This document shows, piece after piece, positions 6,019 through 59,864 of a stretch of DNA of 64,000 nt. The stretch spans positions 239,645 to 303,644 of the forward strand of contig CBDCGG010000002.1 of NCBI GenBank assembly GCA_965216605.1, written 5' to 3'. Position numbers and translations under genes: made by a program. This DNA comes from Alphaproteobacteria bacterium. GTDB lineage: Bacteria; Pseudomonadota; Alphaproteobacteria; JABAAW01. Every line of letters starts with the position of its first letter. The first letter of the stretch is position 1. The notes under the pieces are model-generated. The model made no database searches. It had not been told where the DNA came from and saw nothing but the letters and a program-made list of their open reading frames with translations.

Positions 6019-6705
6019 GTGTCGCAAGGTGTGTCAAATGTTTTTCCCGCAGCAGAGCAACGGAGGTCGCCATCGCTATCGCCATCACCGATTCTCGCTC
6101 CTGCCGAGGCTGTGGTGGAGGCACGCAAGGTTGCCGAGGGGTGTCGGACGCTCGAAGAGCTCGAGCTTGCGGTGCGAGCCTTCGCTCTCTGTTCGTTGAA
6201 AGAGGGCGCGCGCAACACGGTCTTCGCCGAGGGCAATCCCAACGCCGAGCTAGTCGTCGTCGGCGAAGCGCCGGGGCGCGAGGAAGACGAACAGGGAAAA
6301 CCCTTCGTAGGCGAGAGCGGACAACTGCTTTCGCGCATGCTCCATGCGATCGGCATCGCTAGCCGCGAGCAATACCGCGTTACCAATTTGGTCTATTGGC
6401 GCCCACCGGGCAATCGTCAGCCGAGCTTGGACGAGATCGCCGTCTGCTACCCCTTCTTTCTGCGTCACATGGCGCTTGTGAAACCGCGTTGGCTTTTGTT
6501 GCTGGGCAATGTTGCGATGCAAAATGTTCTCTCTGAGCGAAGGGGGATCACGAAGCTACGCGGACAATTATTTCCGATCACGCTGGGGGCAACGCCTGTT
6601 GTGGCATTGCCCTCCTTTCATCCCTCCTACCTGCTGCGCACGCCCGTAAAGAAGGCGGCGGCGTGGCACGATCTACTAATGTTGCGACGCGCTATGAATA
6701 AATGA
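6019..6705 (+). CDS. uracil-DNA glycosylase family 4 catalytic core (likely the 3' part of a frameshifted longer gene starting about 5762)
   Basis: RNTVFAEGNPNAELVVVGEAPGREEDEQGKPFVGESGQLLSRML...VYWRPPGNRQP...LPSFHPSYLLR are the family-4 UDG signature blocks. The ORF 5762-6199 in another frame encodes an LL.W..EAG.D-type N-terminal segment typical of alphaproteobacterial family-4 UDGs, so a frameshift is inferred near 5950-6020. Confidence 0.75.
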   Translation: MSQGVSNVFPAAEQRRSPSLSPSPILAPAEAVVEARKVAEGCRTLEELELAVRAFALCSLKEGARNTVFAEGNPNAELVVVGEAPGREEDEQGKPFVGESGQLLSRMLHAIGIASREQYRVTNLVYWRPPGNRQPSLDEIAVCYPFFLRHMALVKPRWLLLLGNVAMQNVLSERRGITKLRGQLFPITLGATPVVALPSFHPSYLLRTPVKKAAAWHDLLMLRRAMNK

Positions 6706-6773
6706 TTTTGGAATAAGTGATTTTGGAATAAATGATTTTGGAATAAGTTATTTTGGAATAAGTGATTTTGGCA
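6701..6773. repeat. AT-rich 15-bp tandem repeat (aaNtgattttggaata), about 4.8 copies, between udg stop and thrC start
   Basis: Seen directly: aatgattttggaata / agtgattttggaata / aatgattttggaata / agttattttggaata / agtgattttgg. Confidence 0.9.
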
Positions 6774-6898
6774 GGTTGCATCGCACCCTAGAAAAGAGTA
6801 GAATGGTGCGAAGAAATAATATAAGCATGATACCTGATGGGGGGATTTATCCCCGACATGATCCACGACAAACACAACAACACGAGCGAGTTTGCAGC

Positions 6899-9322
6899 AT
6901 GAACTACATGCACTACAAATCCACGCGCGGGGGCGAGAAAAAAACCTTCGCGGATATTCTCAGTAGCGGTCTTGCTGCGGACGGCGGTCTGTACGAGCCT
7001 ACGAGTTGGCCGCACCACCGACGGCTACGAAGTTTCTTAGCGAGCGGCCCCACCTTCCCTGAGGTCGTGGGAGCGGTTGTGGGCGTTTTCGCCGGACGGC
7101 GCAGTTTGACGCATCTTGATTTTACGGCGATTGCTCGCAAGGCCTTTGAACCTTTTCACAGCCGCGCTGTCGTGCCTCTGCGCGAGGTGGAGCATAATCT
7201 TTGGCTGCTCGAACTTTTTCACGGACCGACGCTCTCGTTCAAGGATATTCCGTTGCAATTCTACGGACAGCTTCTGGAAGCCCTTGCGTCCGAGAGGAAA
7301 CGGCTGCTGATTATGATCGGCGCAACATCGGGCGACACGGGCTCTGCCGCCATCGAGGCGATGAAACCCGTTCGCGGCGTGCGATTGTTCATGCTGCATC
7401 CGAAGGATCGTATCTCTGCGTTGCAGCGCAAGCAAATGACAAGCGTCCAATCCCCGAACATCTGCAACATCGCCGTCGAGGGCAGCTACGACGATTGCCT
7501 CCGTCTGGTCAAGGCGGCGGCGCAATCGGAGGCGATCAACGCGCGCGGACAGGTCTCGGCGGTCAACTCTTTCAATTGGATTCGCATTGCCGTGCAAAGC
7601 GCTATCTACCTCTACGCAGCCCAACAGATTCCGCGACGCGCCAAGTCGGTGCGCTTTGCGCTCGCCAGCGGCAACTTCGGCAACGCTTACGCCGGCTATG
7701 TTGCCAAAAAGCTGGGTGCGAACATCGAGGGTCTTACGCTCGCGGTCAGTCACAACGACTTCCTGCATAACCTTTTTCAACAAGGCTCTGCTGCAAGCGG
7801 CGAGGTCGTCCCCAGCCTTGCGCCCAGCATCGACATCATGACGCCGAACAACGTCGAGCGATTGCTCTTCCGCAGCCTTGGCGACAGCGCGCGCCAATGG
7901 AGCAAGGTGCGCGAACAAGCGGAAGAAAGCGGGACGCTCCGCGTGCCGAAAGGCGCGTTGCGTTCGGAGATCTTTCGCTTTTTCCGCACGCAACGTTTCG
8001 ACGACGAGCAAATTCTCGAAGCAATGAGCCAAGCCTACGACAGCGTCGGAGAACCCCTTGACCCCCATTCTGCCATTGCGCTCAAGGCGGCAAAGGATGC
8101 GAGCTTCGAGAAGGAAAAGCAGGCGAAAAAGAAAAAGGCGCACGATATGTGCACCATCGCCCTTGCCACTGCTTCTGCGGCGAAGTTTCCTGAGACGGTG
8201 GAGCGCGCGATCGGGGCAAGACCGCACATGCCCTTGAGGCTTGCCGAGCTCGAGACGAGGGCGGAGGAGTACGAGACAATCGCTGCCGACTTCGAGGCGC
8301 TAGAAAGCATTATTGTTGCGCGATTGCAAAAACCTCTCGATTCGGACGCAAGTGTTCAGGATGCAAGTGTTCAGGATGCAAGCGTTCAGGCGGCAAGCGT
8401 TCAGGCCGCAAGCGTTCAGGAACCTGCAAGCGTTCAGGATGCAAGCGTTCAACCTGCGGAGGGACTTGCCGCAACCGCTGCGGGCTCGGCGACAATTGCC
8501 GAGGACGCTGTGGCAAGCGAAACAGCGTTAGAGGTAGCGCAAGAGGACGAGGAGAAGCGCGAGGAGGGAGAGGACGAAAATTTGGCAGGAATGCCCGAAA
8601 AGATGTCCGAGGCGAATCTTGCCATGGGTACTGCATCCGCCCTCTTCTCTTCGGTACAGCCTCCAGAGATGCCTGCTGTAGCTGCGTTGACGGATGAGGA
8701 AGATTCGTTAGAGAAGAAGATCGCCAAACTGAAAGAACAGACGGCGCAACTCGACGAGAGTCTCGACGATCCTATGACTGCTGCTTCCTCGTCTTTGACG
8801 AGCGATCCTTTCGCCGCTCCTTCCGCCGCAGATTTCTCAGCCACCTCTAGCTTGGAGGACACGCCGAGGGAGAGCGATCCTTTTGCGACACCCCTCCCCT
8901 CTCAGCAAGAAGACGAAACGCAAGAAGACGAGCAGACAGATTTCTCTGCAGAAATAGGAACGACAGAAACAGAAACGACGATGGAAACGATGGGAAGCGA
9001 CGGCGGCGATGATGGCATGGTTTCGTTGGCTGACGCGGCGGAGCAGGGGCAGGCATCGTTGCAAGAGAAGATCGCCAAGTTGAAAGAGCAGAGCGAGAAG
9101 CTTGATGAGGTAGCGGAGACGCCATACTCGCCTTTCGAGGAAGCAAAGGAGGAGACGAGCGAGATCGTTGGGGCAGAGAATTTCTTCTCTCAACCTGCGC
9201 CTCCATCTCAAAATGAGGCTGTCGAATCGAGCGAAACATCTTCTACGGCATCTTCTACGACACCCTCTACGACACCTTCTTGGGAAACACCTCTGGCGGA
9301 AGATCAGGAAGAAAAAACTTAA
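6899..9322 (+). CDS. thrC: threonine synthase (ThrC) fused in-frame to about 330 aa of acidic, repeat-rich low-complexity C-terminal tail
   Basis: MNYMHYKSTRGGEKKTFADILSSGLAADGGLYEP... is the ThrC N-terminal signature. The PLP fold continues to about residue 470 (..SAAKFPETV..). The frame then stays open through (DASVQ)x7, a duplicated KIAKLKEQ(T/S)xxLDE block and a long D/E/S/T-rich region to the stop at 9322. Confidence 0.8.
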   Translation: MNYMHYKSTRGGEKKTFADILSSGLAADGGLYEPTSWPHHRRLRSFLASGPTFPEVVGAVVGVFAGRRSLTHLDFTAIARKAFEPFHSRAVVPLREVEHNLWLLELFHGPTLSFKDIPLQFYGQLLEALASERKRLLIMIGATSGDTGSAAIEAMKPVRGVRLFMLHPKDRISALQRKQMTSVQSPNICNIAVEGSYDDCLRLVKAAAQSEAINARGQVSAVNSFNWIRIAVQSAIYLYAAQQIPRRAKSVRFALASGNFGNAYAGYVAKKLGANIEGLTLAVSHNDFLHNLFQQGSAASGEVVPSLAPSIDIMTPNNVERLLFRSLGDSARQWSKVREQAEESGTLRVPKGALRSEIFRFFRTQRFDDEQILEAMSQAYDSVGEPLDPHSAIALKAAKDASFEKEKQAKKKKAHDMCTIALATASAAKFPETVERAIGARPHMPLRLAELETRAEEYETIAADFEALESIIVARLQKPLDSDASVQDASVQDASVQAASVQAASVQEPASVQDASVQPAEGLAATAAGSATIAEDAVASETALEVAQEDEEKREEGEDENLAGMPEKMSEANLAMGTASALFSSVQPPEMPAVAALTDEEDSLEKKIAKLKEQTAQLDESLDDPMTAASSSLTSDPFAAPSAADFSATSSLEDTPRESDPFATPLPSQQEDETQEDEQTDFSAEIGTTETETTMETMGSDGGDDGMVSLADAAEQGQASLQEKIAKLKEQSEKLDEVAETPYSPFEEAKEETSEIVGAENFFSQPAPPSQNEAVESSETSSTASSTTPSTTPSWETPLAEDQEEKT
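8345..8452 (+). repeat. 15-bp in-frame tandem repeat x7 (gaYgcaagYgttcag, encoding DASVQ) inside the thrC tail
   Basis: Seen directly in sequence. Confidence 0.9.
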
Positions 9323-9350
9323 GCCCTTTGATTGACGAATGCAAAACATC

Positions 9351-9404
9351 GCGTGCGTAGCGCGCGTTCGTTTACTCGTCAAAACGCGAGTCCCGTTTTT
9401 TTGG
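9351..9404 (+). repeat. partial copy (3' end) of the dispersed hairpin-rich element (see 42612-42858), directly after the thrC stop; ends in CCCGTTTTTTT
   Basis: gcgtgcgtagcgcgcgttcgtttactcgtcaaaacgcgagtcccgtttttttgg aligns to the 3' end of copy A (gcgcgcaagcgcgcgttcgtttacgcgtcaatgcgcgagtcccgttttttgg). Confidence 0.7.
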
Positions 9405-9457
9405 ACACTGCCGCTATCTGTTACAAAGTTAAAAAGCGATCAAAGCGATCAAAGCAA

Positions 9458-17310: not shown

Positions 17311-17374
17311 GGGGTTTTTACAAGATTTTTAGGAACAAAAAGGCGTGTCTGCTTCTTCTTGGCTTGCGTTTTTT

Positions 17375-17412
17375 GTCTGTCTGTTGCCTTCGCGCAACAG
17401 ACAGGCTTTTTA
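17375..17412 (+). terminator. rho-independent terminator after lolD
   Basis: GTCTGTCTGTTGC-cttcgc-GCAACAGACAGGC stem-loop followed by TTTTTAT. Confidence 0.6.
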
Positions 17413-17502
17413 TAATGAAGGAAAAACGCAAGACGAGCGAGCCTTAAGATTAGTCTTGGACGAAGTGAGTTTTGCGTTCTGTTTTTTGTCAAACAAAGCT
17501 CG

Positions 17503-22844: not shown

Positions 22845-22950
22845 TATGGTGTTTGCGGGGAACGGGTGCGGGCGAAGCGTTCTGCCAACCCGGTCAGGTT
22901 CGAAAGAGCGCAGCCGTAACAGAGTGCTTCGGGTCGCGCCCGTCCCTACT
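22845..22950 (+). ncRNA. ffs: signal recognition particle RNA (4.5S RNA, ffs)
   Basis: CCGGTCAGGTTCGAAAGAGCGCAGCC matches the conserved SRP RNA domain IV motif (GGUCAGGUCCGGAAGGAAGCAGCC). Flanking arms (GGGAACGGGTGCGGGCGAAGCG ... GCTTCGGGTCGCGCCCGTCCC) are largely complementary. Sits directly upstream of dnaX, the usual ffs-dnaX arrangement. Boundaries are approximate. Confidence 0.65.
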
Positions 22951-23020
22951 CAGGGATAAATTCCCCTGCAGTAAGGCAAACTCTTAAGAAAATCCTTGAA
23001 GCAAGACACCGCAAGATACC

Positions 23021-24424: not shown

Positions 24425-24446
24425 GGTGTGCTTGTGCTTTTTAGGG

Positions 24447-24530
24447 AGCACGCGCTCACAAAACGGAACTTGCGTTTTGACGCGTAAACATCGTGCGCGT
24501 AGCGCACGGGGGGGTGTGGGGGGCAGTCCC
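24447..24530 (-). repeat. partial reverse-orientation copy of the dispersed hairpin-rich element, directly after the dnaX stop
   Basis: caaaacggaacttgcgttttgacgcgtaaacatcgtgcgcgtagcgcacgggggggtgtgggggg aligns to the reverse complement of the 3' end of copy A. Confidence 0.6.
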
Positions 24531-31703: not shown

Positions 31704-32739
31704 ATGAGCGAAAAGAAGCAGAGGATCGATCCTATTCGGCGGGTACGCGGGATGCAGGATTTTCTGCCTGAGCGCGCGGCGGGGATGCGCAGGATTGCGC
31801 GGATTGCGGAGGATGTTGCGAGGCTGTACGGATTCGAGCGCATAGAGATTCCTATATTAGAGAGGGCAAGTTTGTATCGGAGGTCGTTGGGTTTAGGGAG
31901 CGATGTTGTGATGAAGGAGATGTATGCCTTTGAGGATAAAAAAGACAAGAATGACAATAGCGAGGAGTTATGTTTGCGTCCTGAGGGGACGGCGGGGGTG
32001 ATGCGGATGTTGATCGAGAACGGATTGACGCAGACGCTACCGCAGCGATGGTTTTACGAAGGGGCGATGTTTCGTAGGGAGCGTCCGCAGAAAGGACGAT
32101 TTCGCCAATTTCACCAGTGCGGCGTGGAGTTTTTGACTACTCACTACGATTTCATAACAGTCGACTTAGAGGTATTGAAATGCGCTTGGCATTTTTTGAA
32201 AGAATTAGGATTAGCAAAACAAGGATACTTAAATTCAATTGGCTTGGAACAATTGAGGAAAGAGCGCAATACAACATATTGCTTACGCAACACTTTCAAG
32301 AATATAGAACGATGCTCTTTGCTAGAGAGTGTTGAACGCTTCAACGAGGTCAACGCCTTGCGCATTTTTGATTCTAAAGACCCAAGACCAAGAGGCGATT
32401 GAAAACGCACCAGACTTTGAATTAAACGAAACATCAAAAGAAAATATTAAAACAATAAAAAGCTGGTTAACAGAACATTTAAACATACCTTATGAATCGA
32501 TTCTAGCTTGTGCGCGGATTGGATTATTACAGCAACCTTGTTACGAATTTGTTGAAAAAGGATCGACACGCGAACAAGCAACGCTGTTAGCGGGGGGGCG
32601 GTACAATGGCTTGTGCGAACAAATTAGCGGACGCGCTGACAACCCCCCTTTGACGGGCGTGGGCTGGGCAGCAGGATTGGAACGTTTGCTTAATTTATCT
32701 TCATTGTCGAGTAATTTTAATTCAGAGATAAAAATATAA
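31704..32739 (+). pseudogene. hisS: histidyl-tRNA synthetase (hisS), compositionally chimeric, frameshifted and 3'-degraded
   Basis: First frame (31704-32402): HisRS motif 1 and motif 2 (FRRERPQKGRFRQFHQCGVEFL). GC drops from about 60% to about 35% near 32150 inside the gene. Second frame (32329-32739) continues HisRS (..GGRYNGLCEQISG..PLTGVGWAAGLERL) after a frameshift. The anticodon-binding domain is not intact; only stop-interrupted remnants lie in the AT-rich DNA that follows. Confidence 0.6.
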
Positions 32740-33355
32740 AAATTTGTCTTTCTGATTCTATTGTTCCGATATTTGCAAATAAAATTCCTCTGTAAGCAAA
32801 AGAGTTTATGATTGAAAATTTTAGAAACAAATTACATTTTAAAATTCTTAAAAATAATAAAAATATTGTTCTTGTTCTTCTTAAAATGTCAAATATCATT
32901 ACGCTCAAAATGATTACAGAAAAAATAGAAGAAAATTCAAATTTTCTTATTGTTAGATCTATAAGTAGCGATAAGGAAAAATGATGACTTTACATTGTAT
33001 AATATTAAAAAAAGAGATCAAAGCATTATGTTGAGCGTTTGCAGACTTAATTTTATTGATCAATTAAACAAAGAACTAAAAGATTTCATTCAAGAAGAAA
33101 ATCTATAACCCCCTGATGGAAAAACAATTCTATCGGCATGGTGGGCGTTCGTGTGATGCATGCATCCAAGTCATGACACTTGGCGGATTAAAACATGCGT
33201 ATAGGCACGACGATAAGCAGTATGATCTGCCAAGTCGGGAATAAATTCCCCCGCCATGCCGAATCTACATGCATCCTATAAGCATCTCCCGCGTCGGTAA
33301 GAAAAAGGTTGGTTATTAATTTATTTGCTTTTTTGTTAAATTAAGTTATTGTATT
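32150..33355. other. AT-rich (about 30-38% GC) island in an otherwise about 60% GC region, containing the degraded hisS 3' end
   Basis: Compositional discontinuity seen directly. Short stop-interrupted reading frames with HisRS anticodon-domain-like residues (e.g. 32808-32981 MIENFRNKLHFKILKNNKNIVLVLL...). No intact ORF. Confidence 0.6.
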
Positions 33356-33359
33356 AACT

Positions 33360-34520
33360 ATGAGTACACAAGACGAGTTCTGGCGCGAGCGATTCGCAAC
33401 CTCCCTCCGTCAAGAGGAAACAACCCAACTCGCCCTAAACAATCCCACAATCCCTAATGCCGAGCGCGTAACCCTCGCAAAAACACTCGCATCCCTAACC
33501 CCCCTTTGTAACGAAATCCGCTCCTACAATAATCTAACCCAACAAAAAACCTCCGCCCAAAACCTCCTCGCCGAAGAACCAGATTTGGATAAAGCGCTCA
33601 AATCCCTCGCCTCAGAAGAAATTATAACCCTAGAAAAACAACGCACCGCCATCCTAGACAATATTCAAACCCTCATGCTCGACTCATCGGAGGAAGAAAT
33701 AAATACCGCCATCCTAGAAATTAGACCCGGTACAGGCGGCGAGGAAGCCGCCCTCTTCGCAGCCGACCTCCTATCTATGTACCAACGATACTCCGCAAAT
33801 AATTCCTACAAGTTCGAGGCTATCTCCATACAACAAACCCAACAAGGCGGTATCAAAGAAGCCATCGCTACCATCGAAGGACCCCGCGCCTTCACAAGAC
33901 TCTCGGTAGAATCAGGCGTGCATCGCGTCCAACGAATCCCCGAAACCGAAACACAAGGCAGGATCCATACCTCCGCCGCAACCGTCGCCATCCTACCGCA
34001 AACCTCAGAAGTACAACACCCCCTCCTAGAACAAGACCTCCGAACAGAAACCTTCCGCGCACAAGGCGCAGGAGGACAGCATGTCAATACAACCGACTCC
34101 GCCGTGCGTATAACCCATATACCCTCAGGACAAGTCGTACAATGCCAAGACGAAAAATCTCAACACCGAAACCGCGAAAAAGCACTCAAAGTTCTCACCG
34201 CACGAGTGCAACAACATATCCAAGATTCACAAAATGCCGAACGCTCCGCAACACGCAATTCACAAATAGGTAGTGGTGATCGCTCAGAGCGAATCCGTAC
34301 TTATAACTTTCCGCAAAACCGAATCACCGACCACCGCATCTCCCTCACCCTCTATAAACTCGATCGCATCATGCAAGGCGACGGGTTGGAGCTACTACTC
34401 AATCCCCTCGAAGCCGCCCGAAAATCCGAGCGCATAACCCAACTCCAAGAACAAAGCCCCCTGCCAAAAACCTCCCCCTCTCCCAACAAGCAAGCAAACA
34501 AAAAAAATGCCTCGCCTTGA
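33360..34520 (+). CDS. prfA: peptide chain release factor 1 (PrfA)
   Basis: GGQ motif (FRAQGAGGQHVNTTDSAVRITHIPSG), PxT-type decoding region, RF-1 length. Coding strand is strongly C+A-rich. Confidence 0.9.
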   Translation: MSTQDEFWRERFATSLRQEETTQLALNNPTIPNAERVTLAKTLASLTPLCNEIRSYNNLTQQKTSAQNLLAEEPDLDKALKSLASEEIITLEKQRTAILDNIQTLMLDSSEEEINTAILEIRPGTGGEEAALFAADLLSMYQRYSANNSYKFEAISIQQTQQGGIKEAIATIEGPRAFTRLSVESGVHRVQRIPETETQGRIHTSAATVAILPQTSEVQHPLLEQDLRTETFRAQGAGGQHVNTTDSAVRITHIPSGQVVQCQDEKSQHRNREKALKVLTARVQQHIQDSQNAERSATRNSQIGSGDRSERIRTYNFPQNRITDHRISLTLYKLDRIMQGDGLELLLNPLEAARKSERITQLQEQSPLPKTSPSPNKQANKKNASP

Positions 34521-41199: not shown

Positions 41200-42417
41200 T
41201 TAATTTTCCCCGACCTCGATGGCGAGCGCGAGGGCTTCTCCGCCACCGATACAGATTGCTGCCATGCCTCGTTTCAGGTTTCTTGCGCGCAGGGCGGAGA
41301 GGAGGGTGATGAGAATGCGTGCACCCGATGCGCCGATAGGGTGTCCGAGCGCGCAAGCACCGCCATTCACATTGACGCGCTCGACGGGCAGGTGCAGGGC
41401 TTGCATCGCTGCCAGGGTGACTATGGCGAAGGCTTCGTTGATTTCAAACAGATCTACATCCTCGAAGTTCCAGCCGCAGGCTTGTTCGAGTTTTTGCAAC
41501 GCTTGGATAGGGGCGAGCGTGAATCGCTGGGGTTCGCGTGCGTGCGCGGCGGCGGCTTTGATCTCAGCGAGGATGCGCCAGCCTTGTTTTTCGGCAAACG
41601 CCCTCCGAGCTAAGACGAGCATGGCAGCCCCGTCGGAGATGGAGGAGGAGTTGGCGGCGGTAACGCTGCCGTCCTTCACAAATGCTCCTTTCAGATGCGG
41701 AATCTTGGAAATATCCGATTTGAAGGGTTGTTCGTCTTGCAGCACGAGCGTCTCTTTTTTGCGCGAGGAGATCGCTACGGGAACGAGTTCCTCCTTGAAA
41801 CTGCCGTCCTCATTAGCACGGCGCGCTTCGGTGAGCGAGCGGATGGCGAAGTCGTCCATCTGCTTACGCGAGATCTGCAACTCTTGCGCGGTTTCTTCGG
41901 CGAAGATTCCCATACTTTTGTTTTGCCCATATGCGTCTTCCAAGCCGTCGCACAGCATGTGGTCGACGAGGCGCGCGTGTCCCATACGCAAGCCGCCGCG
42001 CGCGTGGGGTAGCAGATAGGGAGCGTTGCTCATGCTTTCCATGCCACCTGCGAGGATGGCGGTATGGGCGTTGTGGTGGAGTGCATCGCATGCCATCATC
42101 ACTGTCTTCAACCCTGAGCCGCACATTTTGTTGATTGTCGTTGCGCCCACGCTATCTGGTAGTTTTGCGGCTCGTGTAGCTTGACGCGCGGGGGCTTGTC
42201 CGATTCCTGCGGAGAGCACGCAGCCGATGAGGCTTTCGGAGAAGATGTTTTCGATTGGGGAGTTGTTGTAGTTGATGTCTGCTAGGCAGGCTTGGATGCA
42301 GCTGGAGGCGAGGTAGGGGGCGGAGGCGGGTGCGAGGCAACCTTGGAAGCTACCGATGGGGGTACGACGAGCGGCGACGATGACGACGGGGTCTTTTGAA
42401 TCTGGGGTTTGCGACAT
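41200..42417 (-). CDS. acetyl-CoA C-acetyltransferase (thiolase II)
   Basis: VVIVAARRTPIGSFQG, active-site Cys region NKMCGSGLK, C-terminal NVNGGACALGHPIGASGARIL. Start moved to an internal Met to avoid overlapping tRNA-Val. Confidence 0.9.
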   Translation of the reverse strand: MSQTPDSKDPVVIVAARRTPIGSFQGCLAPASAPYLASSCIQACLADINYNNSPIENIFSESLIGCVLSAGIGQAPARQATRAAKLPDSVGATTINKMCGSGLKTVMMACDALHHNAHTAILAGGMESMSNAPYLLPHARGGLRMGHARLVDHMLCDGLEDAYGQNKSMGIFAEETAQELQISRKQMDDFAIRSLTEARRANEDGSFKEELVPVAISSRKKETLVLQDEQPFKSDISKIPHLKGAFVKDGSVTAANSSSISDGAAMLVLARRAFAEKQGWRILAEIKAAAAHAREPQRFTLAPIQALQKLEQACGWNFEDVDLFEINEAFAIVTLAAMQALHLPVERVNVNGGACALGHPIGASGARILITLLSALRARNLKRGMAAICIGGGEALALAIEVGEN

Positions 42418-42450
42418 GGGAATTAGTAAGGGGACAAGGAGGGGGAGGCG

Positions 42451-42522
42451 TGGGTACGGTTGGGATTGAACCAACGACTTCTGCCGTGTGAAGGCAACGC
42501 TCTACCGCTGAGCTACGCACCC
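42451..42522 (-). tRNA. tRNA-Val (anticodon CAC)
   Basis: Reverse complement GGGTGCGTAGCTCAGCGGTAGAGCGTTGCCTTCACACGGCAGAAGTCGTTGGTTCAATCCCAACCGTACCCA folds as a cloverleaf; anticodon loop TTCACAC. Confidence 0.8.
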
Positions 42523-42611
42523 TTATCAGGATTTTTTCGGGGGAGGTCGCTACCTTAACCTAGCCGATGGCGCGCGAAAGGTCAATTTGCGAAACGCGCG
42601 TAGAACTGCGT

Positions 42612-42858
42612 GCTTTTTTACGGGGGACGCGGAAAACAGAATCGCCCTGCCGTGTTAAAGGTCAGCTTGCGCACGACAAGTCGTGCGCTTTTGAATAAGA
42701 GGCTACACACTTTGCGCTTCGCGCAAAGTGTGTAGAAGGCGCTTACGCGCCCGCTGACGCGGGGTCTTTTGCGGGGGGGCAAAGCCCCCCCACACCCCCA
42801 CGCGCGCAAGCGCGCGTTCGTTTACGCGTCAATGCGCGAGTCCCGTTTTTTGGGTCTA
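42612..42858 (+). repeat. dispersed hairpin-rich intergenic element, full copy A (REP/MITE-like or structured ncRNA)
   Basis: About 85% identical to 51863-52066. Chain of GC-rich hairpins (gcgcacgac-aag-tcgtgcgc; ctacacactttgcgc-ttcg-cgcaaagtgtgtag; gggggggc-aaa-gccccccc; cgcgcgcaagcgcgcg). Fragments at 9351-9404 and 24447-24530. Confidence 0.8.
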
Positions 42859-42947
42859 CACCGCTCCCTCTTAAAATTCATAAACAAAGCGTAAGCGCTT
42901 TCCATGCCTTCGCAAGCCTTCGGCTTGCGAAGGCATGGCTTCTTGAA

Positions 42948-43454
42948 CTACTCCAGCGCACCCCCCCTCTCAATCCGTCCCCCCGCACCCCCCAGCCGCA
43001 CCACCAACTCCCCCACCGAACACCCCAACGCCGGATCACAAAAATTCGACGCAATCTCCTCAAGCGGCAGCAAAACAAAAGCTCGCTCAGCTCTACAAGG
43101 ATGAGGAACAACTAATCCCCGCTCAACAATAATCCGCTGCTCGTAATACAATAAATCCAAATCAATCACACGCGGACCATAACGACGCTTCGATACAACC
43201 CTCCCTAACCCCCTCTCCAAATCCTTCAAACGCACAAGCAACGCCTCAGGCGATAAACTCGTCCGACAACAACAAACCGCGTTGAGAAAATCAGGCTGGT
43301 CAGAGTCATACATCGCACAACTCCGATACAACGACGAAAAACGCTCGACAATAATATCCCCCCTCGCACCCAAAGCCTCGCGCGCCGCCAACAAATGAAC
43401 CCTCTTATCACCAAGATTGCTGCCCAAAGCAACAAAAACCGGAGAATGCCACAT
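42948..43454 (-). CDS. folK: 2-amino-4-hydroxy-6-hydroxymethyldihydropteridine pyrophosphokinase (FolK/HPPK)
   Basis: MWHSPVFVALGSNLGDKRVHLLAAREAL...GPRVIDLDLLYY is the HPPK signature. The longer ORF-track start lies in the tandem repeat and is rejected. Confidence 0.85.
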   Translation of the reverse strand: MWHSPVFVALGSNLGDKRVHLLAAREALGARGDIIVERFSSLYRSCAMYDSDQPDFLNAVCCCRTSLSPEALLVRLKDLERGLGRVVSKRRYGPRVIDLDLLYYEQRIIVERGLVVPHPCRAERAFVLLPLEEIASNFCDPALGCSVGELVVRLGGAGGRIERGGALE

Positions 43455-43480
43455 CCTTCCCTCGAAAATATGTCGCCAAA

Positions 43481-43522
43481 GTATGCCGCAAGAGTATGCC
43501 GCAAGAGTATGCCGCAAGAGTA
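43481..43522. repeat. 13-bp tandem repeat x3 (gtatgccgcaaga) abutting and resembling the 3' end of tRNA-Thr
   Basis: gtatgccgcaaga x3, followed by gtatgccgaag, which is the tRNA 3' acceptor arm. Confidence 0.85.
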
Positions 43523-43594
43523 TGCCGAAGGGGAGATTCGAACTCCCGGCCTACTGATTACGAATCAGTTGCTCTACCCCTGAGCTACTTCGGC
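43523..43594 (-). tRNA. tRNA-Thr (anticodon CGT)
   Basis: Reverse complement GCCGAAGTAGCTCAGGGGTAGAGCAACTGATTCGTAATCAGTAGGCCGGGAGTTCGAATCTCCCCTTCGGCA; anticodon loop TTCGTAA. Confidence 0.8.
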
Positions 43595-43740
43595 TCTTAT
43601 CGAACAAGCACGGACAACATGCTAGCAAACTTTTTCCCCATCTCTCACAGAATATATTGCACACAGACAACTCTGGTGCTTTATACACGAGCCGTTTTGC
43701 ACTATCATGCGCCTTGTCTCCCTTTGTTTTCACAGGCTGC

Positions 43741-51792: not shown

Positions 51793-51862
51793 GGCTGGGC
51801 AGACACGGGCTTTGTTGATTAGGTAACATACGCAAGACGAGCGAGCCGCAAGGCGAAGTGAG

Positions 51863-52066
51863 TTTTGCGGGAAGATAGAGACAAAACAGAATCGCCGTAC
51901 CATGTTACAAGTCAGCTTGCGCGAGGCAAAGCCTCGCGCTTTTGAATAAGAGGCTACGCGCTACGCGCGTAGATAAAGCGCACTGCGTGCGCTCCGCTGA
52001 CGCGGGGTCTTTTGCGGGGGGGCAGAGCCCCCCCACACCCCCACGCGCGCAAGCGCGCGTTCGTTT
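51863..52066 (+). repeat. dispersed hairpin-rich intergenic element, full copy B
   Basis: Aligns to 42612-42823 of copy A. Hairpins differ in sequence but keep pairing (gcgcgaggc-aaa-gcctcgcgc versus gcgcacgac-aag-tcgtgcgc). Confidence 0.8.
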
Positions 52067-52144
52067 TGCATCCGTCAAACAAAAAGCCCATCAAGACAAA
52101 AAGTCCATCGTACATCCCTAGTTCTGCTACAATCCCCCCAGCCC

Positions 52145-56254: not shown

Positions 56255-56305
56255 GGCAGGTTTTTATTGGCTGTTGGTCTTGTCATTTTTTCCGTGCAGA
56301 GAAGG

Positions 56306-56425
56306 GACGGCAACGCCCTACTCTTCCACGCCACGAGGACGCAGTACCATCGGCGCAGGAGGCTTTCACGTTCGAGTTCGGAAAGGGATCGGGTGTTGAG
56401 CCCTCCGCTATGATCGCCGCCCCGT
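56306..56425 (-). rRNA. rrf: 5S ribosomal RNA
   Basis: Reverse complement ...GGCGGCGATCATAGCGGAGGGCTCAACACCCGATCCCTTTCCGAACTCGAACGTGAAAGCCTCCTGCGCCGATGGTACTGCGTCCTCGTGGCGTGGAAGAGTAGGGCGTTGCCGTC matches the 5S consensus (CCGAACTC.GAAGTGAAAC, GCGCCGATGGTA, GAGAGTAGG). Confidence 0.85.
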
Positions 56426-56563
56426 CACTGCACGGAGATAAAGTATAAATTTTTTGCGACAAATTTGTCGTTTTTTGTTTTGAGAACGCTTTTCAATTTG
56501 AATTTCTGTCACAGCACTATCTATGGGCTGAGGCGCTGCTTGCGTTTTGTCGATGCAAAGAGC

Positions 56564-59410
<2,847 letters not shown>

Positions 59411-59760
59411 GCTCTTTGCTGACAATTCGCAAGCAGCGCCTCAACTCATAGAGGGCTGCTGTTGACAGAAATTGTGCGTTCTTTCCGATTTCACAAAACT
59501 CCGTGCGCAACACGCCGACAGAGCCAGAAAATCGAATTCTTACAAACGATGGACTTGTTCAATAGTTCCCCCCCGAAACGCCTCTCGTATTGCAAATACA
59601 AGCAGCGCGAAGCCCATAATAGCCGAGCCAGTACTAGAGCGCAAGATAAAAAGCACAAAAAACGCCTCAACGATAAAAAAACATGCAAGCGAAAATTTTC
59701 CCATCCTCCCCTCTTTTGCTCCCCTCTTTGTGCGCCTTGCCTCAAAGCAACTTGCGTAGA

Positions 59761-59841
59761 AAACGACGCTCTCATGTCGCATTCTCACTTCCGATAACGC
59801 TTCTCAGGCTTACGGAACGCTCCGCTAGCGATGCAACAGAA
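59761..59841 (-). repeat. partial, internally deleted duplicate of a 23S segment (the region flanking the helix-45 IVS) in the rRNA leader
   Basis: ctcatgtcgcattctcacttccgata...aggcttacggaacgctccgctagcgatgcaacagaatctgtccgtcg matches 58052-58154 except for a 28-nt internal gap, same orientation as the rRNA. Confidence 0.8.
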
Positions 59842-59864
59842 TCTGTCCGTCGGCAATCATTTCA

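Follow-up and report, generated by a model that had tools for sequence, protein, structure and literature searches.

Pneumococcal BOX (boxA-boxB(n)-boxC), Neisseria NIME/dRS3 and Correia, Rhizobium RIME and Rickettsia RPE repeats are intergenic, strain-variable sequences, often located near variable or surface-protein genes, in which the number or combination of modules varies. Closer to the sequence considered here are the repetitive extragenic palindromic (REP) sequences and bacterial interspersed mosaic elements (BIMEs) of Enterobacteria, Pseudomonas, Stenotrophomonas and Xanthomonas, which are associated with the REP-associated tyrosine transposases (RAYT, or TnpA-REP) and whose sequence types differ yet keep complementarity (PMC3333891 Fig. 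1 legend, PMC2817692). We examined a stretch of 64,000 nucleotides from an alphaproteobacterial assembly (contig CBDCGG010000002.1, positions 239,645 to 303,644; hereafter the window, numbered from its first nucleotide). A preliminary description of this DNA had drawn attention to a hairpin-rich element present in two copies, which we delimit at 42631-42876 (copy A) and 51883-52067 (copy B), both on the plus strand, and had proposed that it was either a structured noncoding RNA (ncRNA) or a repeat of the REP type or of the miniature inverted-repeat transposable element (MITE) type. The latter half of that proposal is borne out by the hundreds of copies, their intergenic position, their occurrence in both orientations and the variation of sites and cassettes; the former half is not.

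We think it likely that the flagged sequence is a copy of a lineage-specific, interspersed and modular palindromic repeat DNA, similar in kind to REPs, BIMEs and the inverted REP doublets known as REPINs. We file the family beside the REP/BIME kind, and not as a member of the RAYT-REP family. We observed directly its copy number and mosaicism, the maintenance of pairing in its hairpins, the replacement of cassettes at orthologous sites, the polarity of its loops, and its placement between genes, often convergent ones.

Architecture and distribution of the repeat family

The four places named in the preliminary description were read directly, and repeat finding and local BLAST were applied to the 64-kb window. 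A full unit of the family is approximately 200-250 nt long and has a fixed order of parts: a 5' arm of one of two types, GTCAGC, hairpin H1, a linker, hairpin H2 (CTAC...GTAG), hairpin H3, GCTGAC or the alternative CGCTCGCGGCGCGC, hairpin H4, then H5 or a T-module, and a tail that is one of several alternatives. In copy A we assigned the 5' arm to 42633-42660, the closing stem to GTCAGC at 42661-66 paired with GCTGAC at 42753-58, H1 to 42669-88, the conserved linker CTTTTGAATAAGAGG to 42688-42702 (H1 ends on the first C of this linker), H2 to 42703-35, H3 to 42738-51, the G-hairpin H4 to 42773-91, H5 to 42801-16, and a tail module to 42817-76 with a run of T residues (T-run) at 42846-51. Every block of copy A recurs many times in the genome OZ244186.1. 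Copy B, in the gap between rsmA and gltX, has the same scaffold, with different H1 (51919-39), H2 (51954-72) and H3 (51977-93), followed by H4 (52016-34) and H5 (52044-59), and has no T-run tail.

That A and B are two copies of one repeat, as had been suggested, proved correct. They have five blocks in common (AAAACAGAATCGCC, GTCAGCTTGCGC, GCGCTTTTGAATAAGAGGCTAC, CCGCTGACGCGGGGTCTTTTGCGGGGGGGCA and AGCCCCCCCACACCCCCACGCGCGCAAGCGCGCGTTCGTTT), and the 3' block, A 42751-42823 against B 51994-52066, is 73 nt long with 99% identity (E 1e-34, local BLAST). H1, H2 and H3 are wholly different in sequence between the two copies and are perfect palindromes in each, as was also the case for every stem quoted from the three that had been said to differ and still pair. 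The shared modules had been called identical, but they differ by one base, the loop of the G-hairpin being CAAAG in A and CAGAG in B. Both copies fold far more stably than shuffled sequences (z -5.1 to -6.6), and do so equally on either strand.

To determine the extent of the family we scanned a genome collection with the 19-nt linker CTTTTGAATAAGAGGCTAC as an anchor. The linker was found in at least 87 stretches and at least 120 copies, among the matches listed almost all on OZ244186.1, a 1.9-Mb alphaproteobacterial metagenome-assembled genome (MAG) closely related to that from which the window comes, with 84-91% DNA identity in syntenic genes. The DNA of OZ244186.1 that was sampled for these exact copies amounts to 686 kb; when up to 3 substitutions are allowed, the linker core occurs 259 times in 669 kb. 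The family counts rest mainly on loci L001-L087 of this genome, a biased sample in which 13-mers repeated at least 6 times account for approximately 12% of the sequence. Such a density of the family is unusually high for a genome of 1.6-1.9 Mb.

Beyond OZ244186.1, the MAGs bin109s and bin96p of the same lineage also bear the family, and a diverged copy is present in locus L089, whose thiolase is 79% identical; in relatives with a 65% identical thiolase the family was not found. The anchor scan of a metagenome collection gave 11 matches, all of them chance matches without family context, and plasmid and phage collections gave no family match. An Rfam check, which had been proposed for the element, returned no family at the gathering score (best sub-threshold score at most 24.5 bits, against thresholds of at least 34 bits), and permissive thresholds gave nothing usable. 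A literature search under the accession numbers found nothing. The family is confined to a narrow lineage.

Each hairpin slot holds one out of a limited set of near-perfect, GC-rich palindromes, in modules of 14-33 nt. At H1 we found at least 8 stem types, all perfect, and at H2 at least 10, among which are some hybrid, imperfect ones; about 4 types are seen at H3 and about 5 each at H4 and H5. The exact A-type cassettes are present in 6 other loci and the exact B-type cassettes in 8, and 64 of the 66 copies that we aligned have a unique combination of slots. H1 is unlinked to every other slot, whereas the closing stem, H4 and H5 show tight linkage to one another. In addition, small hairpins (GTAACCCTTCTCGGGTTAC, GGGGATAAATTCCCC and others) are inserted in the loops of larger ones. 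The 15-nt mini-hairpin GGGGATAAATTCCCC occurs 128 times in the OZ244186.1 sample, at several different insertion positions (e.g. L058 2370-2385 and 3563-3577), and the 19-nt hairpin GTAACCCTTCTCGGGTTAC is located within H2 or H3 loops, always with the existing loop TAC as its 3' arm and in one case as a triple tandem.

Pairing and cassette turnover

We compared the alignment of 66 copies with 500 shuffles. The preliminary description had allowed that additional copies might carry substitutions that break pairing; instead, pairing held, with standard pairs in 97.0% of cells as against 87.5% in the shuffled alignments. The covariation score was 0.317, compared with 0.155 for the shuffles, and was matched by 0 of the 500. 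When partner columns were slid by 1-3 positions, pairing dropped to 42-65%. H1 is 99.4% paired although 5 of its 7 pairs have changed on both sides, and one of these is AU in 30 copies, UA in 30 and CG in 6. These observations strongly support the conclusion that pairing is actively preserved in the family. Certain near-identical cassettes have one position changed on both arms (GCGCACGAC, GCGCACGCC and GCGCACGGC, each with a matching 3' arm), from which it follows that compensation or templated repair occurs in the family. Single (1x1) stem mismatches are rare, at 112 per 6412 pairs; over all copies 17 are G·T, 36 are A·C and 59 are other, and when distinct contexts are counted the numbers become 14, 11 and 39. 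The lack of a G·U excess on the reading strand, by which we mean the strand that presents the parts in the order given above, argues against an RNA read from that strand. Template switching creates and repairs perfect stems in a single event (PMC8794818), and by analogy template-switch mutation could be a DNA-level route to such a "compensatory" pattern.

The orthologous sites in relatives show how the cassettes behave over time. The genome represented by L088 has a thiolase 91% identical, and flanking DNA 85-88% identical, to that of the window. The element is present there at the A site, and the portion from CCGCTGAC to past the T-run, along with the unique flanks, matches the window, with one base different in the shared flank. 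The 5' arm, H1, H2 and H3, however, are all other family cassettes than those in the window. In L089 and L090, both with a thiolase 79% identical, the A site is empty. The empty A site of L090 (9700-9840) has two short tandem arrays instead, one of GCCAAGATCAAT repeats and one of CCAAGACAAATAAT repeats.

At the B site, the rsmA-gltX gap is approximately 350 bp in the window and approximately 1.9 kb in L058 and L088, in which inverted arrays of full and partial units are arranged around a peroxiredoxin gene (L058 2677-3250). This gene is not in the B site of the window, L089 or L090. Although the flanks of L058 and L088 are 97-98% identical, their B-site cassettes and number of tandem units differ. 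Whole modules have been replaced while the flanks remained nearly unchanged, and turnover is therefore much faster than point substitution.

Because exact cassettes recur in the family and have been exchanged at a single orthologous locus, we read the stem differences between A and B as alternative circulating cassettes that were swapped wholesale, and not as compensatory mutation in place. This bears on the earlier argument that covariation between the copies reflected selection on structure. The argument holds insofar as pairing is kept across 66 copies, but the step from there to an RNA gene does not, given the cassette swaps at one orthologous locus. Strong and clean covariation in a multi-copy element can come from shuffled palindromic cassettes, and by itself is no evidence of an RNA gene.

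Loop polarity, placement and paired copies

The loops of the hairpins differ between strands. On the reading strand, 212 of 270 triloops have the form TNC and 104 of 146 tetraloops the form TNNC, and the loops of the complementary strand are GNA and GNNA (mostly GTAA), closed by C-G. The sequence GCGNAGC occurs 2 times on the reading strand and 307 times on the complementary strand, and GCGNNAGC 15 and 220 times, respectively; counted over distinct hairpins, the polarity is 48 to 3. The middle base of the triloop is free (TAC 81, TGC 66, TTC 62) and the outer two are fixed, which is the requirement of sheared G·A loop closure. GCGNAGC and GCGNNAGC have been described as "mini-hairpin DNA" that is extraordinarily stable and nuclease-resistant as single-stranded DNA (PMC13037366). 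The centers of the complementary-strand hairpins are literally GCGAAGC, GCGTAGC, GCGCAGC, GCGTAAGC and GCGATAGC, of which GCGAAGC, GCGTAAGC and GCGATAGC are listed with a melting temperature of 71-76.5 °C; mini-hairpins are known, however, from phage and plasmid single-strand origins and promoters, and not as the core of a dispersed chromosomal repeat (PMC13037366). The pattern suggests that single-strand folding in one polarity is what the element was selected, or built, for. Since this polarity is not aligned with transcription, single-stranded DNA would be the likelier medium.

Most copies (105 of 118) are intergenic, that is, outside open reading frames (ORFs) of at least 120 aa. Some E. 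coli REPs act as RNA modules in 3' untranslated regions (UTRs), and one might read the present family in the same way, with GC-rich hairpins that block 3'-5' exonucleases or terminate transcription and with selection acting on the RNA fold. We consider this reading unlikely, though several results speak for it. Gaps between convergent genes contain 35 of 88 copies (40%), compared with a background of 20%; many hairpins on the reading strand are followed by T4-T6; a pattern scan of 42300-43700 found 7 terminator-like sites where 2.3 were expected; and the complementary strand is predicted to fold as RNA approximately 4 kcal/mol better in 91 of 113 copies. The tail module is terminator-like as well, having a stem ACTCG..CGAGT (imperfect in A), a 4-nt CCCG spacer and T6-7, although its T-run can alternatively be drawn as the loop of GTCCC-GTTTTTT-GGGAC. 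In 12 scorable copies of this module there is a converging gene on the 3' side in all 12 and a co-oriented upstream gene in 9, the 3 without one including copy A. From its sequence and setting it is plausible that the T-run tail module ends or insulates transcription. On the other hand, between co-directional genes the copies show no orientation bias (18 sense and 20 antisense), and copy A, which is situated between folK(-) and tRNA-Val(-), is antisense to both neighbors; it had been placed after tRNA-Val, but this gene (42450-42522) is on the minus strand and A is therefore upstream of it. Mismatches compatible with G·U, counted once per context, are not enriched on either strand (14 versus 11, and 39 of other kinds), T-runs and stable GNA/GNRA loops are on opposite strands and so never occur together in one transcript, and tandem arrays, nested insertions and rapid cassette turnover would be needless for a UTR function. 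Far less probable, and in our view largely refuted, is the idea that the many copies are genes for structured small RNAs, each transcribed on its own and acting in trans. The strong folding (z -5 to -6.6) and striking covariation would be in keeping with such genes, and copy A ends in a hairpin and T-run and has no co-oriented upstream gene, as a free-standing small RNA gene might. Yet no promoter-like site was found upstream of A by the pattern scan, T-run tails number 17 against 259 linker cores such that most copies, including B, have none, and the copies, in their hundreds, are nearly all different combinations that fold equally well on both strands. Nor did we find the in-place orthologous conservation that is expected of an ncRNA gene, as the A site is either empty, in the relatives with a 79% identical thiolase, or has had its cassettes replaced, between close relatives; a family restricted to one narrow lineage and with no Rfam family near threshold is also hard to reconcile with this view. 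A structured-ncRNA gene is not supported for the element.

The arrangement of neighboring copies invites a different explanation, in which the copies would form the long inverted repeats at the ends of a larger transposon or gene-capture unit, or of a MITE descended from such a unit, and solo copies such as A and B would be half-elements left after recombination. Adjacent copies are head-to-head (5' arms facing) in 16 cases, tail-to-tail in 8 and in the same orientation in 8, and the head-to-head excess is concentrated at short range: for pairs no more than 2.8 kb apart the numbers are 15, 3 and 4. Eight tight, cargo-free head-to-head doublets form imperfect palindromes of at least 400 nt, their left arms with the linker variant CTTTGGTACAAGAGGC. 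The wider head-to-head pairs enclose single low-GC genes, with a GC content of 0.29-0.47 in 9 of 12 pairs as against 0.51-0.58 outside. These enclosed genes are accessory and defense genes, and include a GmrSD-type restriction enzyme, an HNH protein, Sel1-repeat proteins and the peroxiredoxin (L058, L019, L083, L008, L012, L016 and others); the last of these, as noted above, stands between inverted arrays in L058 and L088 and is missing from the B site of the window, L089 and L090. A Pfam search of six enclosed ORFs placed GmrSD_N and HNH above the cut-off, gave weak sub-threshold matches to a coiled coil, DUF559 and DUF2207_C, left one ORF without a match, and found no transposase or integrase among the six. 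Recent movement of units composed of an element, a Sel1 gene and a second element was rejected, as the Sel1 paralogs are only 72-75% identical. With no mobilizing enzyme among the cargo tested, with arrays of same-orientation partial units also present, and with termini and target-site duplications that could not be defined, we judge this explanation to be doubtful, to about the same degree as the 3' UTR modules. Somewhat less probable again is a bolder proposal that draws on the same doublets, namely that the family is a new kind of single-strand-hairpin element, with combinatorial cassettes and strand-specific mini-hairpin cores, that is served by a non-RAYT enzyme, uses its doublets as landing pads to capture foreign genes in the manner of integrons or minimal mobile elements, and thereby drives the approximately 0.3-Mb difference in genome size among close relatives of a host-associated alphaproteobacterium.

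Several points also weigh against our preferred reading of the family as REP/BIME-like repeat DNA that acts as a folded single strand. The strand polarity could be partly inherited from one ancestral hairpin unit and not selected. We saw no orientation pattern along the chromosome, for which origin and terminus were guessed from a weak GC skew, and this lack of bias is a misfit with the simplest model of transposition as lagging-strand single-stranded DNA. A role at the RNA level is possible. The comparison genomes are metagenome assemblies, in which repeats can be mis-assembled. When we used E. coli RayT (from NC_000913) as a phmmer query against ORFs of at least 60 aa from the window and approximately 0.8 Mb of relatives (including approximately 35% of the OZ244186.1 genome), this single query, of limited reach, gave no match even at E<=10. 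Repeated ORFs in this DNA included no multi-copy transposase, but consisted of RTX-like and Sel1-repeat proteins and spurious ORFs that run through repeats. Finally, the only filled-versus-empty comparison, that of the A site with L089 and L090, was too diverged for target-site duplications or exact termini to be defined.

Other candidates were considered and rejected: a CRISPR array, as there are no regularly spaced unique spacers; an integron attC array, as no integrase was found and attC hairpins would be longer and less perfect than these; and a group II intron, retron or bridge RNA, for which the copy number and mosaicism are a misfit.

Besides A and B the window contains fragments of the family, as had been reported, and more of them than were listed. 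A 13-mer map made from the relative's copies outlines five patches of family DNA, at 9339-9401, 17390-17476, 24486-24523, 42631-42854 and 51798-52078. Directly upstream of A, comparison with the orthologous site of L088 revealed a degenerate remnant of another copy (42588-42619, plus strand), which comprises the 3' arm of H1, the GTAG end of H2, a truncated H3 and then a T-run, and which the pattern scan scored as terminator-like. A perfect nested palindrome, CCATGCCTTCGCAAGCC-TTCG-GCTTGCGAAGGCATGG (42901-42940), is found immediately downstream of the stop of folK, and its core is an H1/H2 cassette of the family; this palindrome is not present at the orthologous site of L088. An inverted 3'-end fragment, composed of a T-module CGCAAAACTCACTTCGCC..GGCTCGCTCGTCTTGCG and TATGTTACCTAATCAA, begins 23 nt past the rsmA stop (51815-51869, minus strand), and an inverted T-module fragment (17390-17476, minus strand) is located behind a GTCTGTTGC..GCAACAGAC palindrome in a convergent gap after lolD.

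Two further fragments, C and D, had been proposed to serve as transcription terminators after the stops of thrC and dnaX. Fragment C (9328-9426), in the gap of a converging thrC-like ORF (stop 9322) and polA (stop 9458), is a chimera in which the 3' ends of two elements are joined in inverted orientation within H5, and its right half is a T-run tail module (T-run 9395-9401). Fragment D (24425-24530, minus strand), in the gap of converging dnaX (stop 24424) and acpS (stop 24583), is an inverted 3' part with a G-hairpin variant, the H5 variant CGTGCGC-TAC-GCGCACG, a tail module and part of a GAGCGCGTGC..AAAAAGCAC module. The proposal is plausible for the T-run tail module only; because fragment D is inverted, its T-run module does not read as a dnaX terminator.

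A second palindromic family was also noted, GTCTGTTGCGCG...CGCGCAACAGAC, often with an inner GTGC..AAAAAGCAC hairpin, with an example in the window at 17370-17400. When at most 1 mismatch is allowed, its 12-nt arm matches 74 times in L001-L088 and the window. Nearly all of these matches are in the OZ244186.1 sample, in which this second family is usually preceded by H5-GATGTTTTGC..CCGTCATCATACAAAGCCC. The more distant relative L090 (170-440) has it as well, at a site that does not contain the main family.

Other features of the window were recorded in passing. The bacterial small signal recognition particle RNA (22857-22951, 47.2 bits) is immediately upstream of dnaX, an ordinary arrangement. 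The threonine-synthase-like ORF (6776-9322) has an acidic, repetitive C-terminal extension of approximately 400 aa, in which DASVQ units are encoded by 15-nt tandem repeats (8317-8477) and a KIAKLKEQ segment is duplicated. There are two intergenic tandem arrays, one of GAATAAATGATTTTG repeated about 5 times upstream of this ORF (6696-6770) and one of CCGCAAGAGTATG repeated about 4-5 times in the interval from the folK start to tRNA-Thr (43460-43524). A segment at 32001-34000 has a GC content of 0.416, compared with approximately 0.55-0.59 elsewhere, and may be acquired DNA; no family repeat adjoins it in the 13-mer map. The 23S (56305-59411) and 5S rRNA genes are on the minus strand, and as no 16S gene or spacer tRNAs are present in the 4.6 kb upstream, the rRNA operon is unlinked, which is common among reduced host-associated genomes. 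A 68-nt piece of the 23S gene (58091-58158) is repeated at 91% at 59788-59855, approximately 380 nt upstream of the 23S 5' end, and an inverted partial copy of the piece lies at 58236-58261. In the OZ244186.1 sample (e.g. L032, L053, L062 and L080) there are many large paralogous RTX-like proteins (GGxGxD repeats) and Sel1-repeat proteins. Taken with the small genome and the unlinked rRNA genes, these paralogs suggest a host-associated lifestyle.

A working model and known systems

Copies of the repeat multiply and turn over in intergenic DNA and exchange cassettes with one another, apparently by recombination or gene conversion via the conserved linkers, such that nearly all copies differ in their combination. 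In the model that we favor, the hairpins would persist because it is as a folded single strand that the element works, and the likeliest reader of the fold would be a DNA enzyme that works on single-stranded hairpins, either of the HUH/Y1 type or another structure-specific nuclease or recombinase. Template-switch errors of replication may help to restore perfect palindromes. As side effects, the copies would place strong hairpins in 3' untranslated RNA, supply one terminator-like tail, and, as head-to-head pairs, bracket low-GC genes that were presumably acquired horizontally. What we infer from the patterns described above is action as single-stranded DNA, the mode of recombination and any part that the element plays in termination or in the capture of genes.

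The family has features of several mobile sequences. Its size and noncoding nature fit a MITE (50-500 bp), but single units have no terminal inverted repeats and their termini are heterogeneous; it is the head-to-head doublets that give long inverted arms. Its hairpins have a one-strand polarity, as do the subterminal hairpins recognized in elements of the IS200/IS605 type; the orientation bias relative to replication that marks such elements was not seen along the chromosome, for which origin and terminus were placed only roughly, and the sampled DNA gave no Y1 homolog.

The resemblance to REPs and BIMEs is more extensive. In both cases short GC-rich palindromes are present in at least 100 copies, in extragenic DNA, and in mosaic clusters with conserved linkers; array length varies between strains, and sequence types differ while complementarity is kept. 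In the aligned copies a GTAG precedes H3 by 2-5 nt, which recalls GTAG-headed REPs such as Xanthomonas GTAGGAGCGCGCTCGCGCGCGA, but this GTAG is paired with CTAC as the foot of H2, whereas the head of a REP is unpaired. A second GTAG, on the other strand 15 nt 5' of H1, is also a paired H2 end. The differences go further than this. The unit has at least 5 hairpins in a fixed order and one polarity, with no alternation of REP and iREP inside it and only whole units inverted as doublets, and each position has many alternative cassettes. E. coli TnpA-REP requires a mismatch in the stem, but most stems of this family are perfect. The search of the sampled DNA detected no RAYT, and the host is an uncultured alphaproteobacterium.

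The REPINs of Pseudomonas fluorescens (PMC3116915, PMC3337134) offer a parallel to the doublets, which likewise constitute one long imperfect palindrome, and to the family as a whole, a population of non-autonomous replicators within the genome that is apparently inherited vertically in a narrow lineage. The arms of the doublets, however, are approximately 200 nt long and contain multiple hairpins, compared with approximately 25 nt for REPINs, their linker variants and cassettes differ between arms, and singletons and tandem partial arrays are common. We believe that the family is a promising natural system in which to study the recognition and propagation of single-stranded DNA hairpins outside the gammaproteobacterial REP-RAYT model, as well as how repeats shape the gain and loss of genes in genomes that are reduced and probably host-associated.

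With the BOX, NIME/dRS3, Correia, RIME and RPE repeats the family has in common the variable number and combination of modules, and it has no sequence relationship to any of them. To our knowledge, none of these has been described as a row of slots for interchangeable perfect palindromes with one strand polarity. Compared with the REP and MITE types in general, what is unusual in this family is its combinatorial cassettes, the one-strand polarity of its mini-hairpins, and the bracketing of acquired genes by its paired copies.

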